From Kofleriaceae bacterium (GTDB lineage: Bacteria; Myxococcota_A; Polyangia; Haliangiales; Haliangiaceae), in contig JABTUH010000016.1 of NCBI GenBank assembly GCA_015075455.1, positions 1 through 64,000 of the forward strand: a stretch of DNA of 64,000 nucleotides, given 5' to 3'. This document shows, piece after piece, positions 15,621 to 18,089 of this stretch (position 1 is its first letter; each line of letters begins with the position of its first letter). The translations under genes and the position numbers were made by a program. The notes under the pieces are model-generated. The model had not been told where the DNA came from. It saw only the letters and a list, made by a program, of their open reading frames with translations, and did no database searches.

Positions 15621-18089
15621 ATGCGCGCCCCGCTGCTCGCCGCCGCCGCCGTCACCGCGGCGCTCGGCGCCCGTCCCGCCGCCGCCGACGAGCTGACCAG
15701 CGCGCTCGATCAGGGCGTGGTCGAGATCTCGCACGCGGTCGAGGTCTCGGTCGCCGCCGGCGTCGCCCGCTACCGCGTGCGCCGCACCTTCGCCAATCCC
15801 GGCGCCGTCGCCGACGAGGCCCGGCTCGAGATCGACCTGCCCTACGGCGCCGCCGCCACCGGCCTGCGCATCCGCGCCCGCCGGCAGTGGTTCGACGGCG
15901 ACCTGCTCGAGGCGACCGCCGCCCTCGCGCGCTACCAGGAGCTCACCGGCCGCGGGCGGTGGGAGCCCAAGGATCCGGCGCTGCTGGCCTGGCGCTGGGC
16001 GGACAAGCTGGCGCTGCAGGTGTTCCCGGTGCTGCCCGGCGCCACCAGCACCGTCGAGTACACGCTGACCGTGCCCACCCGCTACCGCGGCGGCCGGGTC
16101 TTCCTGTCGTACCCGCGGCCGCACACCGCCGGCAGCAACCTGGCCGAGCCGGTGGTGGTGGTGCGCCCGGCGTGGGCCGACGCCACGACCCCGATGCGGC
16201 TCGACGGCGAGCGCGTCGCCACCGACACCCCGCTGGTGCTGCGGCCCCCGGCGGACCCGCCGTGGCTGGCGGCGATCGAGCGCGACGAGCACGCGAGCTA
16301 CGCCGCGAGCGCGATCGAGGTCGCGGCCACGCCGGCGACCCGCCGCACCTTCGCCGCCGCCACCGTCACCCTCGACCTCGAGCACACCTTCCGCGGCGAC
16401 CTGCGGATCGCGCTGGTCACGCCGGCGGGCGCCGCGATCGAGCTCTTCGGCGGCGAGGGCGGCGGCGCCAACGACGTGCGCGGCCGCTTCCCGGTGACGC
16501 TCCCCGCCGGCACCACCGGCGCCGGCACCTGGCGGCTGGTGGTGTCGGATCACGCCGCGCTCGACACCGGCACGCTCGAGGGCTGGGCGCTCGAGCGCGA
16601 GCTCGGCGATGGCGCGGCGATCACGGTCGCGGCCACCGACACCCCGGTGTTCGTGCCCGATGCCCCCGAGCGCCCGTCCGACGGCGGCGTCGCCGTCATC
16701 GAGCTGGCGCCGCCGGCGATCCACACCGTCGCCGCGCGGCTCGGCCGGGTCGTGGCCTCGCCCGCCCACGCCTTCACCCGGCTCGAGCTCGACGTCGCCC
16801 CGGTGCTGCGGCCGCTGCCGCGACGACCGCAGGTGGTGTTCGCGATCGACGCCTCGCACTCGATGGGCCCGGCCGGGATCGAGCTGCAGCTCGCGCTGGT
16901 GCGCGCCTACCTCGGCCACGTGCCCGACGCCGAGGTCGAGCTGGTGGTCTACCGCGCGCGCCGCGAGCTGCCTGTTCGGCGCGTTCGTGCCGGCCGCGAG
17001 CTCGACGCCCGGCTGGCGCGCCGCTGTCGCCGCCGACCGGCTCGCGCCCGGCAACGGCATCGCGCGCTCGACGACGCGGCGCGGGTCGCGGCCGCGCGCG
17101 CTCGCGGGCCGCCCGGCCCCGCCGCGTCGTCCTCGGTCTCCGACGCCCTGGTCCGCCCGCGCTGGGACGACGCGCCGGCCTGGGCCGCCCTCGCCGCCCT
17201 CCCCGCCGACACCGTCGTCCACGTCGTCGTCGCCAGCCCGCGCCACGGCGGCGAGCCGGCGCTCGAGCGCGACGACGATCACGCGCTGGCCCCGCTCGCC
17301 CTCGCCCACCGCGGCATCCTCGCCGAGCTCGCGGGCGGCCGCGACCCCGGCAAGGCCCTGCCCCGGCTCACCCTCGGGCTGGTGCGCCCGGTGCAGCTCG
17401 ACCACGTCCAGCTCCGCGGCCTCGATCGCGCGACCGGCCGCGCGATCGAGCTCACCCACGGCCGCCACGACCGGCCCGTGCCCTCGACCTTGCCCGAGGG
17501 CGCCGGCCTGCGCCTGGTCGTCGACCACGCCCACGCGCCCACCCGCGTCGAGCTCACCGCCATGATCTGGGGCGAGCGCTTCCGCCGCGTGATCGACGCC
17601 GACGCCGCGTTCTCGCGCGCCGCCGCCGCCTGGGTGTTCTCCGAGGACGACCACGGCGCGCTGTCGCCCGCCGAGATGATGACGGTGGCGATGCAGGGGC
17701 GCGCGGTGTCGCCGGTGACGTCGTACCTGGCGATCGAGCCCGGGGTCCGACCGTCGACGATCGGGCTCGAGCGGGAGGGCCAGGGCCGGCTGGGCAGCCG
17801 GTCGGTCCGGGCGCCGCGCGTGGTCATGGGCACGGCCCGCACCCGCGCCCGCCCCGACCCCGCGCCGCTGCTCGCCGCCGGGGTGCGCGCCTGCGTCGAT
17901 CGCCACCGGCCGGCCGCCGGCTGGCAGCTCACCCTCGAGCTCGACACCTCCTACGACGAGATCGTCGACGTGACCGCACCCGACGCGCGCACGCCGCTGG
18001 CGAGCTGCCTGGTCGAGGCGGCGTGGGCGGCGCGGCTGACCCCGGCCTTCGACCTCGGGCGCGAGCGCTTCACCCTCACGCTCCGCTGA
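15621..18089 (+). CDS. Secreted multidomain protein: VIT (vault protein inter-alpha-trypsin) domain + proprotein-convertase P-domain + von Willebrand factor A domain + C-terminal region; local compensating indels around 16980-17160
   Basis: ATG at 15621 opens MRAPLLAAAAVTAALGARPAAADE, a signal peptide. The VIT-like segment is ISHAVEVSVAAGVARYRVRRTFANPG...LEIDLPYGAAATGLRIRARRQWFDGDLLE...YTLTVP. The P-domain is TVTLDLEHTFRGDLRIALVTPAGAAIELFG...GTWRLVVSDHAALDTGTLEGWAL. The vWA MIDAS start is VVFAIDASHSMG. The upstream 140 codons of the track ORF are spurious. Confidence 0.7.
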   Translation: MRAPLLAAAAVTAALGARPAAADELTSALDQGVVEISHAVEVSVAAGVARYRVRRTFANPGAVADEARLEIDLPYGAAATGLRIRARRQWFDGDLLEATAALARYQELTGRGRWEPKDPALLAWRWADKLALQVFPVLPGATSTVEYTLTVPTRYRGGRVFLSYPRPHTAGSNLAEPVVVVRPAWADATTPMRLDGERVATDTPLVLRPPADPPWLAAIERDEHASYAASAIEVAATPATRRTFAAATVTLDLEHTFRGDLRIALVTPAGAAIELFGGEGGGANDVRGRFPVTLPAGTTGAGTWRLVVSDHAALDTGTLEGWALERELGDGAAITVAATDTPVFVPDAPERPSDGGVAVIELAPPAIHTVAARLGRVVASPAHAFTRLELDVAPVLRPLPRRPQVVFAIDASHSMGPAGIELQLALVRAYLGHVPDAEVELVVYRARRELPVRRVRAGRELDARLARRCRRRPARARQRHRALDDAARVAAARARGPPGPAASSSVSDALVRPRWDDAPAWAALAALPADTVVHVVVASPRHGGEPALERDDDHALAPLALAHRGILAELAGGRDPGKALPRLTLGLVRPVQLDHVQLRGLDRATGRAIELTHGRHDRPVPSTLPEGAGLRLVVDHAHAPTRVELTAMIWGERFRRVIDADAAFSRAAAAWVFSEDDHGALSPAEMMTVAMQGRAVSPVTSYLAIEPGVRPSTIGLEREGQGRLGSRSVRAPRVVMGTARTRARPDPAPLLAAGVRACVDRHRPAAGWQLTLELDTSYDEIVDVTAPDARTPLASCLVEAAWAARLTPAFDLGRERFTLTLR

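Follow-up and report, generated by a model that had tools for sequence, protein, structure and literature searches.

We found that the gene at 15621..18089 (forward strand) of the window, the 64,000-nucleotide stretch of Kofleriaceae DNA that was analysed, encodes an unremarkable member of a protein class that is already known. The analogy to VPARP that had been drawn for it is without support, and the indels in the gene are artefactual. Taken as a whole, it is highly probable that the product is a Sec-exported, ITIH-like VIT/P/vWA protein, that its proximity to an MVP homologue is synteny within a narrow clade, and that the frameshifts are consensus errors of this MAG. The product would be soluble, with a build like that of an ITIH heavy chain, and would consist of a VIT beta-sandwich, an inserted kexin-type P domain, a vWA domain with a MIDAS, a returning SPVTSY strand and a disulfide-bonded C-terminal domain. 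By analogy to ITIH and other secreted vWA proteins, its most likely role would be to bind a protein or matrix ligand, with divalent cations required, either in the periplasm or extracellularly.

The reading frame comprises 822 codons plus the stop; it starts with the ATG at 15621 and closes with the stop codon at 18087-18089, and translation showed it to be open in the frame that the first-pass annotation had given. By exact look-up, the 822-aa product is identical to MBE7453516.1 of NCBI, which derives from a Kofleriaceae MAG and is annotated as a normal protein under the name 'proprotein convertase P-domain-containing protein'. More than 358 full-length homologues were found. They form a large, uncharacterised, myxobacterial family, limited to the class Polyangia of the Myxococcota as far as sampled. 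Cultured carriers of homologues include Nannocystis punicea FL3 and N. pusilla Na p29 (loci L048 and L051). Our literature searches returned no paper on the family and no experimental study of any member. The gene appears to be a stand-alone, monocistronic unit, and genes on the opposite strand lie on both of its flanks; the downstream one, a Peptidase_M50B-like gene (18095..18877, reverse strand; Pfam E 2.3e-34), converges with it. Scans of 14400-19000 for promoter and terminator consensus sequences gave no hit, which at 77% GC was to be expected.

The reading of the product as VIT plus P domain plus vWA, put forward in the first-pass annotation, held up, since VIT and P_proprotein score above the Pfam cut-offs in the window sequence and VWA_2 does so in the clean allele P0001. 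All parts of the gene described in the following lie on the forward strand. The VIT domain (aa 37-147, 15729..16061; PF08487, E 2.2e-8, 34.7 bits against a cut-off of 26.5) aligns with the VIT domains of ITIH4 and ITIH1. The proprotein-convertase P domain (aa 247-324, 16359..16592; PF01483, E 1.9e-14, 54 bits against a cut-off of 21) spans profile positions 4-84 of 86 and includes the string HTFRGDL...GTWRLVVSDHAALDTGTLEGWAL that had been quoted earlier. By sequence it gives a weak match to a kexin P domain (E 0.7), and by Foldseek it matches the P domain of the Aeromonas sobria protease. Apart from VIT, P_proprotein and VWA_2, Pfam scans to E 1 returned only one chance DUF.

Towards the C-terminus, the nearly invariant block SPVTSYLAIEP (17709..17741) forms a strand at residues 699-703 of the structural model. 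ITIH heavy chains have a conserved strand motif at the C-terminal side as well, and in ITIH1 this 'VITpt2' completes the VIT sandwich (PMC10539598). The VTSY of our protein is likely the counterpart of 'VITpt2', and the strand probably returns in the same manner to complete the VIT sandwich. The last part of the protein is an alpha/beta domain (17856..18086), delimited by secondary structure and modelled with a pLDDT above 90, for which neither the window protein nor P0001 gave a Pfam match. It carries the sole conserved cysteines of the family, C757 and C795 in P0001 numbering, which likely form a single disulfide; most family members have exactly two Cys.

At the N-terminus we identified a predicted Sec-type signal peptide, MRAPLLAAAAVTAALGARPAAA followed by DE (15621..15686), with a hydrophobic stretch, an A-x-A site before the Asp and no lipobox Cys. 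This call is heuristic, as it uses hydrophobicity and the A-x-A motif only. Within the family, 97% of 117 members have a hydrophobic N-terminus and 99 of the 117 have an A-x-A-[DE] site, where A22 is nearly invariant and D23 invariant. The AlphaFold model shows the region as a helix of low pLDDT. A C-terminal sorting signal or hydrophobic tail is absent from the protein.

The P domain forms the core of a segment of about aa 213-355 (16257..16685) that is missing from a group of P-less, likewise uncharacterised VIT-vWA sister proteins (about 650-700 aa; P0265, P0270 and P0288 are examples). These relatives of about 670 aa match in two stretches, over VIT and vWA, with 35-48% identity on either side of the P domain, and they share with our protein the signal peptide, the two cysteines and the SPVTSYLAIEPGVRPS motif. 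Because the sister group aligns on both flanks, the P domain represents a genuine insertion, as the first-pass annotation had supposed when it described the VIT/vWA pair as interrupted, and it can be dated relative to that group. The kexin/furin convertases also have a bona fide P domain with the signature HT(F/Y)xxDL...GxWxLxVxD...G.L..W.L, whereas here the domain is inserted in an adhesion-type scaffold and a subtilase catalytic domain is lacking; Pfam scans detected no subtilase or Peptidase_S8 domain in our protein or in four homologues. The name 'subtilisin-like proprotein convertase family protein', under which homologues appear at JGI, is misleading for the same reason.

The AlphaFold model of the protein (pLDDT 90) has ITIH1 as its best Foldseek match (PDB 6FPY, E 8.6e-22, 750 columns), which points to a body built like ITIH, with a putative MIDAS in its vWA domain. 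ITIH4 (PDB 9C4F) was found by profile search with E 7e-6, and ITIH chains are the only significant sequence matches in the PDB. Like the ITIH heavy chains, the protein is secreted, begins with a VIT sandwich, continues with a vWA domain that has a putative MIDAS and is similar in overall structure. It differs from them in being bacterial, in having an insertion of 140 aa with the P domain between VIT and vWA, so that the spacing of the two domains is 287 aa compared with 156 aa in ITIH4, and in the exchange of the MIDAS Thr for Ser; sequence identity is only 11-19%. The C-terminal domain of ITIH, together with a processing site, is used for the ester linkage to chondroitin sulfate. Our protein ends instead in its own Cys-paired domain of 80 aa, and Pfam scans found no ITI_HC_C domain in it. 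Among the bacterial VIT proteins that are exported and carry this domain at the N-terminus, TIGR03788 (marine proteobacterial sortase target) and TIGR04477 (XrtN-system VIT protein) are matched over the VIT region only and far below their cut-offs (19.7 bits against 551.65 and 18.8 bits against 250, respectively), and the tail features of these proteins are the ones that ours lacks. As a by-product, this analysis adds a bacterial family that has the full ITIH-like scaffold and whose MIDAS residues are invariant.

The vWA domain extends over 16833..17393, with the D-x-S-x-S motif at 16848-16862 (D410, S412 and S414). VWA_2 (PF13519) reaches 13.9 bits in the window sequence, below its threshold of 27 and over aa 405-450 only, while the undamaged allele P0001 reaches 31.6 bits over aa 405-508 and shows the vWA fold. 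Three independent assemblies carry such a clean allele, with VWA_2 above the threshold. The claim of a vWA domain therefore fails for the window as written and is borne out by P0001; the domain is genuine, and the window score stays under the threshold because a patch of frameshifts at 16955-17134 scrambles it. We took as a MIDAS the combination of D-x-S-x-S with a Thr in the alpha3-alpha4 loop and an Asp after beta4. Across 117 family sequences, no variation occurs at D410, S412, G479, S480 and D507, and at least 90% have S414, with Ser in place of the Thr. From these residues, the domain would carry a metal-ion-dependent adhesion site made up of D-x-S-x-S, Ser480 and Asp507. The window allele keeps D-A-S-H-S and the Asp (D507 in P0001 numbering), and its GNGS loop is destroyed by the frameshifts.

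The patch in the vWA domain consists of seven indel events involving nine bases, net +3, relative to three other assemblies (L001, L002 and L003), which come from different datasets, are identical to each other and match the family consensus. Substitutions accompany it between 16597 and 17181. The family-conserved peptide can be traced through all three frames of the window, and the consensus is recovered only by hopping between frames; codon phase is lost at 16801-17281. The cluster of compensating indels that the first-pass annotation described is thus real, but the neighbours are not clean, as had been stated, and the indels do not single out this gene. Four similar patches lie nearby: at 8594-8630 in a HEAT/PPIase gene, at 11686-11990 across the 3' end of MscS and the MVP start codon, and, from the comparison with other assemblies, at 20426-20502 and at 22450-22650. 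All patches sit on local GC maxima of 80-89%, with 84% at the one in our gene, compared with a mean of 75.6%, and over a further 25 kb or so of the same window (about 28.3-53 kb) codon phase is unstable or chaotic.

Judged against the other assemblies, the frameshifts are best read as an assembly, consensus or sequencing error of this MAG, and the intact allele found in L001, L002 and L003 is almost certainly the one that the organism has. A biological origin, whether as a pseudogene in decay, as a hypervariable segment or through frameshifting programmed in this strain, is very unlikely. A sceptic could see selection in the net change of +3, which leaves the reading frame open, and the normal NCBI annotation of the 822-aa product might be taken the same way. 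By our calculation, three in-frame patches out of five are expected by chance with p of about 0.2. The scrambled stretch deletes the invariant GNGS loop and pushes VWA_2 under its threshold, which speaks against a biological origin. Moreover, the remainder of the gene and nine of its neighbours match the other assemblies at 100% identity, so that seven indels in 180 nt would have had to arise without divergence elsewhere. The recurrence of the same type of patch in at least four other genes and at the start codon of MVP, each time on a GC peak, and the long region of chaotic codon phase count against it as well. The frame hopping in the vWA domain is hence a quality defect of the MAG contig that touches several neighbours.

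The proximity of an MVP homologue (11992..14526, forward strand; Pfam MVP_shoulder with E 2e-25, and Vault_3) had led to the suggestion of a VPARP-like protein. In the window, the ATG of MVP is lost (GCG at 11989-11991 in the start codon comparison), and the protein is 100% identical to that of L001 over aa 2-845. Between MVP and our gene lies a hypothetical gene of 335 aa (h335; 14546..15553, reverse strand), which has no Pfam match, is 100% identical to the L001 gene in tblastn, converges with MVP and diverges from our gene across a gap of 67 bp. MVP was found near 4 of 80 family loci, all of them among the closest homologues (63-98% identity), and three other loci at 59-61% identity with full flanks have no MVP. 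Conversely, a family member is near 2 of 80 MVP loci, 35 of which have at least 3.6 kb downstream. In one syntenic relative, L010, the HEAT/PPIase-h335-VIT block is retained but MVP is missing; in L007 and L008, an insertion of 3.3-3.6 kb separates MVP from h335. When neighbours were clustered de novo, neither the family nor MVP showed a conserved partner. The neighbourhood comparison that had been proposed as a check, with MVP homologues that never neighbour VIT-vWA genes as the outcome speaking against the idea, thus gave essentially that outcome. The earlier caution that the adjacency may be coincidental was justified, and the suggested shared origin was not. The position of MVP two genes away is synteny inherited within a single, narrow clade of Kofleriaceae and does not amount to a link with vaults, be it functional or evolutionary.

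That the protein is a bacterial vault accessory, a PARP-less counterpart of VPARP/PARP4 that partners MVP and lies near it through co-function or common descent, is extremely improbable. VIT and vWA are indeed the non-catalytic domains of PARP4 (PMC10539598), and MVP and our gene are 1.1 kb apart here as well as in L001, L004 and L006. Of the 80 family loci, 76 lack the pair, as do 78 of the 80 MVP loci; L010 has no MVP, and the gene between the two is on the opposite strand, which precludes a shared transcript. The two genes also evolve at different rates, with MVP 88-90% identical among these genomes and our protein 63-67%. PARP4 is cytosolic and our protein is exported; MVP has no hydrophobic N-terminus, in line with the first-pass annotation, and the conservation of the signal peptide in the family argues against a cytosolic partnership with MVP. 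VPARP/PARP4 associates with MVP through a C-terminal MVP-interaction domain. Pfam scans of our protein detected no such domain, nor a BRCT or PARP catalytic domain, and a PDB profile search to E 10 returned no PARP4 chain. Among solved structures, the nearest are those of the secreted ITIH heavy chains, and the VPARP-like framing was accordingly dropped. Bacterial MVP homologues have been described previously (bioRxiv 10.1101/872010), where VIT/vWA neighbours are not mentioned, and in a 2026 'RNA vault' TIR preprint TEP1 is the only protein for which vWA is mentioned. A tempting false lead, half of VPARP beside a bacterial vault protein, is thereby removed, and for work on bacterial MVP the gene is no guide to vault function.

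Polyangia carry highly conserved MVP homologues as well as the complete ITIH-type module in one secreted protein. It is conceivable, though unlikely, that the eukaryotic VIT-vWA lineage (ITIH, VWA5A and PARP4) and MVP were both drawn from a myxobacterium-like gene pool, even with no functional link between the two genes in the bacteria. Separately, the P-domain subfamily might act as an ITIH4-like protease trap or a matrix cross-linker, a speculation by analogy that is equally unlikely. The data show a fold relationship only and exclude a conserved MVP/VIT-vWA gene pair.

Alternatively, the protein could be an extracytoplasmic sensor or ligand-binding partner that feeds a signal to an adjacent membrane Ser/Thr kinase, a proposal to which we give little credence. 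By raw counts, genes for Ser/Thr kinases are the commonest neighbours of the family, with 37 in 26 of the 80 loci; 11 of them are immediately adjacent, and five lie directly upstream on the same strand. Their orientation and position vary, however, and the gene in the window has no kinase neighbour. Since Ser/Thr protein kinases are very abundant in Myxococcota, the enrichment near the family is modest at best. In one database entry, P0113, a kinase seems to be fused to VIT-P-vWA, which would favour such a partnership. We rejected this fusion as probable frameshift read-through, because an Arg/Ser/Pro-rich linker that looks out of frame is followed by a normal signal peptide. His kinases, an abundant family too, are also among the commonest neighbours of the family loci, in varying orientation.

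The target gene (window 15621-18089, + strand) starts with ATG at 15621 and comprises 822 codons up to the stop at 18087-18089, in the frame proposed by the first-pass annotation. Its third-position GC of 0.96 speaks for its coding nature; the G+C of the window is about 77%. Using Pfam, we found a VIT domain at aa 37-147 (E 2.2e-8, 34.7 bits vs a cut-off of 26.5) and a P_proprotein domain at aa 247-324 (E 1.9e-14, 54 bits vs 21). Both parts of the proposed VIT, P-domain and vWA composition therefore stand, whereas the VWA_2 match (aa 405-450) is truncated and, as written in the window, sub-threshold (13.9 bits vs 27); the vWA domain is recovered in P0001, the clean allele of the gene (31.6 bits, aa 405-508). 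An NCBIfam scan gave just VIT-region matches to two sorted-protein families, far under threshold. The 822-aa sequence is exactly that of MBE7453516.1 on a 215,686-bp contig, titled 'MAG: proprotein convertase P-domain-containing protein [Kofleriaceae bacterium]' at NCBI. The protein is already auto-annotated and belongs to a known kind of protein. [quoted passage not shown]

The VIT-P-vWA family is large and uniform. We found more than 358 full-length homologues of about 800-830 aa with VIT, P and VWA_2 domains, originating from Myxococcales, Kofleriaceae and Polyangiales MAGs, and when 1.84 billion representatives were searched with the family profile, 809 clusters matched at E <=1e-30. A one-genome-per-species scan returned 220 relatives, the best 80 of which are all from Myxococcota (Kofleriaceae/Haliangiales, Nannocystaceae and Polyangiaceae), with Nannocystis punicea FL3 and N. 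pusilla Na p29 as cultured carriers among the Nannocystaceae. At least 10 MAGs harbour two paralogues on separate contigs (loci L007/L017, L008/L015, L004/L068, L022/L029, L005/L060 and others), and proximity to MVP was seen only for the orthologue of the window gene, never for the other copy. Three proteins of 2627-4158 aa (P0326, P0331, P0332) match the family profile solely where it covers the P domain, each in 8-9 repeated stretches, and appear to be P-domain arrays in unrelated large proteins.

It had been suggested that the P domain interrupts the VIT-vWA pair, and this is borne out by the next-best profile matches. These are mostly about 650-700 aa long and align in two stretches (about 1-215 and 355-811). 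The P domain was absent from all four shorter relatives scanned; three of them carry VIT and VWA_2, the fourth VWA domains alone. The P-less relatives align with 35-48% identity on either side of a gap at P0001 aa ~213-355. The spacing from VIT to vWA, 287 aa in the target vs 156 aa in ITIH4, an inter-alpha-trypsin inhibitor heavy chain, is consistent with such an insertion. Taken together, the alignments show that the P domain was inserted into the VIT-vWA scaffold, an event dated by the P-less sister group. This group is numerous (P0265, P0270, P0288, P0334, P0364; about 650-700 aa) and has the signal peptide, the two cysteines and the SPVTSYLAIEPGVRPS motif in common with the family.

The AlphaFold2 model of the clean allele, based on 117 aligned homologues, is of high confidence, with a pLDDT of 90.3 and a pTM of 0.86. 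Its best Foldseek match in the PDB is ITIH1 (6fpy; E 8.6e-22 over 750 columns). Further VIT/vWA or vWA proteins come next, and the P domain of the model matches the Aeromonas sobria kexin-like protease. By sequence, the PDB matches are only ITIH4 (E 7e-6), ITIH1 and, weakly, a kexin P domain, with no PARP4 chain among them. The MIDAS residues D410, S412, S480 and D507 are invariant in the family, and S414 is nearly so. Most members have exactly two cysteines, both within the C-terminal alpha/beta domain. The nearly invariant block SPVTSY(L/V)AxEPGxRPS is modelled as one strand towards the end of the chain. It probably corresponds to 'VITpt2', the C-terminal strand by which the VIT sandwich of ITIH1 is completed (PMC10539598). 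A hydrophobic N-terminus is present in 97% of the members and an A-x-A-[DE] site in 99 of 117, while MVP N-termini are not hydrophobic; this supports the earlier view of an exported protein beside an MVP without a signal.

We have established which domains the target has, that its model folds like ITIH, that the MIDAS residues are invariant and the signal peptide conserved, and that the gene stands in a monocistronic setting. The protein would be exported via Sec and cleaved after A-A-A, and its ITIH-like body would carry one disulfide in the C-terminal domain. Outside the cytoplasm, a MIDAS loaded with Mg2+/Mn2+ would bind its ligand, either a protein or a matrix component. The P-domain beta-sandwich may serve as an extra module for binding or spacing. 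The ITIH heavy chains are structurally closest to the target and the proposed working is likened to theirs, but their C-terminal features are absent, so we name it 'ITIH-like' rather than ITIH. With VPARP (PARP4), to which the first-pass annotation had compared it, the target has only the generic VIT-vWA pair in common, and we see no specific relation. Speculatively, Polyangia may have been the source of both MVP-like and ITIH-like modules for eukaryotes, or the subfamily may be an ITIH4-like protease trap.

The adjacency to MVP had been considered either coincidental or a sign of shared origin. MVP lies near the family gene at L004, L006, L007 and L008, which are among the closest homologues (63-98% identity). 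These are the only four of 80 family loci with MVP, in flanks of up to 10 kb per side, and MVP was not found at L013, L014 and L016 (59-61% identity, full flanks). Within the clade, a whole 20-kb block is syntenic (HEAT/PPIase, MscS, MVP, h335, target, M50B, BfoA-like and onward). MVP homologues are very widespread (5990 matches, 68-90% identity over 845 aa). Searching 80 metagenomic MVP loci with tblastn or the family HMM on six-frame ORFs, we found a family relative in two, being the L006 and L008 contigs; the sequence beyond MVP extends for at least 3.6 kb in 35 of these loci and for at least 7 kb in 25. L010 lacks MVP, and h335 and the target come straight after HEAT/PPIase, while L007 and L008 have an insert of 3.3-3.6 kb between MVP and h335. 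Both h335, the 335-aa gene between MVP and target, and the M50B gene downstream lie on the opposite strand, so the target is not co-transcribed with MVP. Considering the rarity of the pair, L010 and the opposite-strand genes, the adjacency is a coincidental, lineage-specific synteny limited to close relatives, and shared origin is not supported. This is essentially the pattern that the first-pass annotation had named as speaking against its proposal. Neither the family gene nor MVP has a conserved neighbour (80 loci each), and a study describing MVP homologues of bacteria (bioRxiv 10.1101/872010) makes no mention of VIT/vWA neighbours. Conservation of Myxococcota MVP (68-90% identity) greatly exceeds that of the VIT-P-vWA protein of the same genomes (63-67%).

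Of the 80 family loci, 11 have a Ser/Thr protein kinase gene as immediate neighbour (L011, L018, L020, L023, L032, L038, L044, L045, L047, L053, L070); in five, the kinase gene is directly upstream and shares the strand of the family gene. This is a weak hint of an association and not convincing. P0113 (database 'protein kinase', 1133 aa) merges a kinase with a family protein via a frameshifted-looking linker; rather than a kinase fusion, it looks like frameshift read-through.

The nearest homologue of the target is P0001 (MCL4227241.1, 821 aa; 95% identity), and nearly all differences fall in a single stretch of the vWA domain. The gene is also found in GCA_023382815.1 (NCBI) and in the Logan assemblies of SRR21762701 and SRR11593520 (L001-L003). 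These three copies are mutually identical and, within the gene, the window departs from them at 16597-17181 only, with surplus bases at 16955, 17018, 17060-61, 17096 and 17134, bases absent at 16993 and 17114 (two bases), and six substitutions. Reading the window in three frames restores the family consensus in pieces: ...YRRAASRLFGAFVPA / RELDARLA / AAVAADRLAPGNG / SALDDAARVAAA / ALAGRPGP / RRVVL / VSDALVRPRW... The mutually compensating indels noticed earlier are thus real (net +3 nt); they disrupt the vWA domain including its invariant GNGS loop, which is lost, and this accounts for the weak vWA score.

The neighbours, described as clean, are not. Over the 22.5 kb in common, window and L001 are 99.67% identical, and apart from two isolated substitutions the differences are confined to patches at 8594-8630, 11686-11990, 16597-17181, 20426-20502 and 22450-22650. 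Indels at 8594-8630 switch the frame of the HEAT/PPIase gene. The patch at 11686-11990 deprives the MscS-like gene of its last ~11 codons, its ORF extending to 12097, and turns the MVP start codon at 11989-11991 from ATG into GCG, so that MVP would be called from GTG at 12019 with 835 instead of 845 aa. The last two patches affect two hypothetical genes (490 and 895 aa) and are in-frame at 94-95% identity; nine other genes are 100% identical. Three in-frame patches out of five are unremarkable (p ~0.2). The patches coincide with local GC maxima (80-89% vs a mean of 75.6%) and GC3 codon phase is lost there. We infer that they are consensus errors left uncorrected at extreme GC; the indels of the target gene are an artefact.

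Between 28300 and 53000, codon phase as read from GC3 changes or is lost at intervals of 400-600 bp, while elsewhere in the window it is stable over gene-length runs. GC rises to 82-83% there, and the long ORFs are almost without Pfam matches, with only a DEAD_assoc fragment (29855-32389, - strand) and ECH_1 (44387-45745, - strand). This stretch is probably some 25 kb of low-quality consensus full of frameshifts. The short-read contig of L001 stops ~0.8 kb beyond the last aligned window position, 28104, about where this stretch begins.
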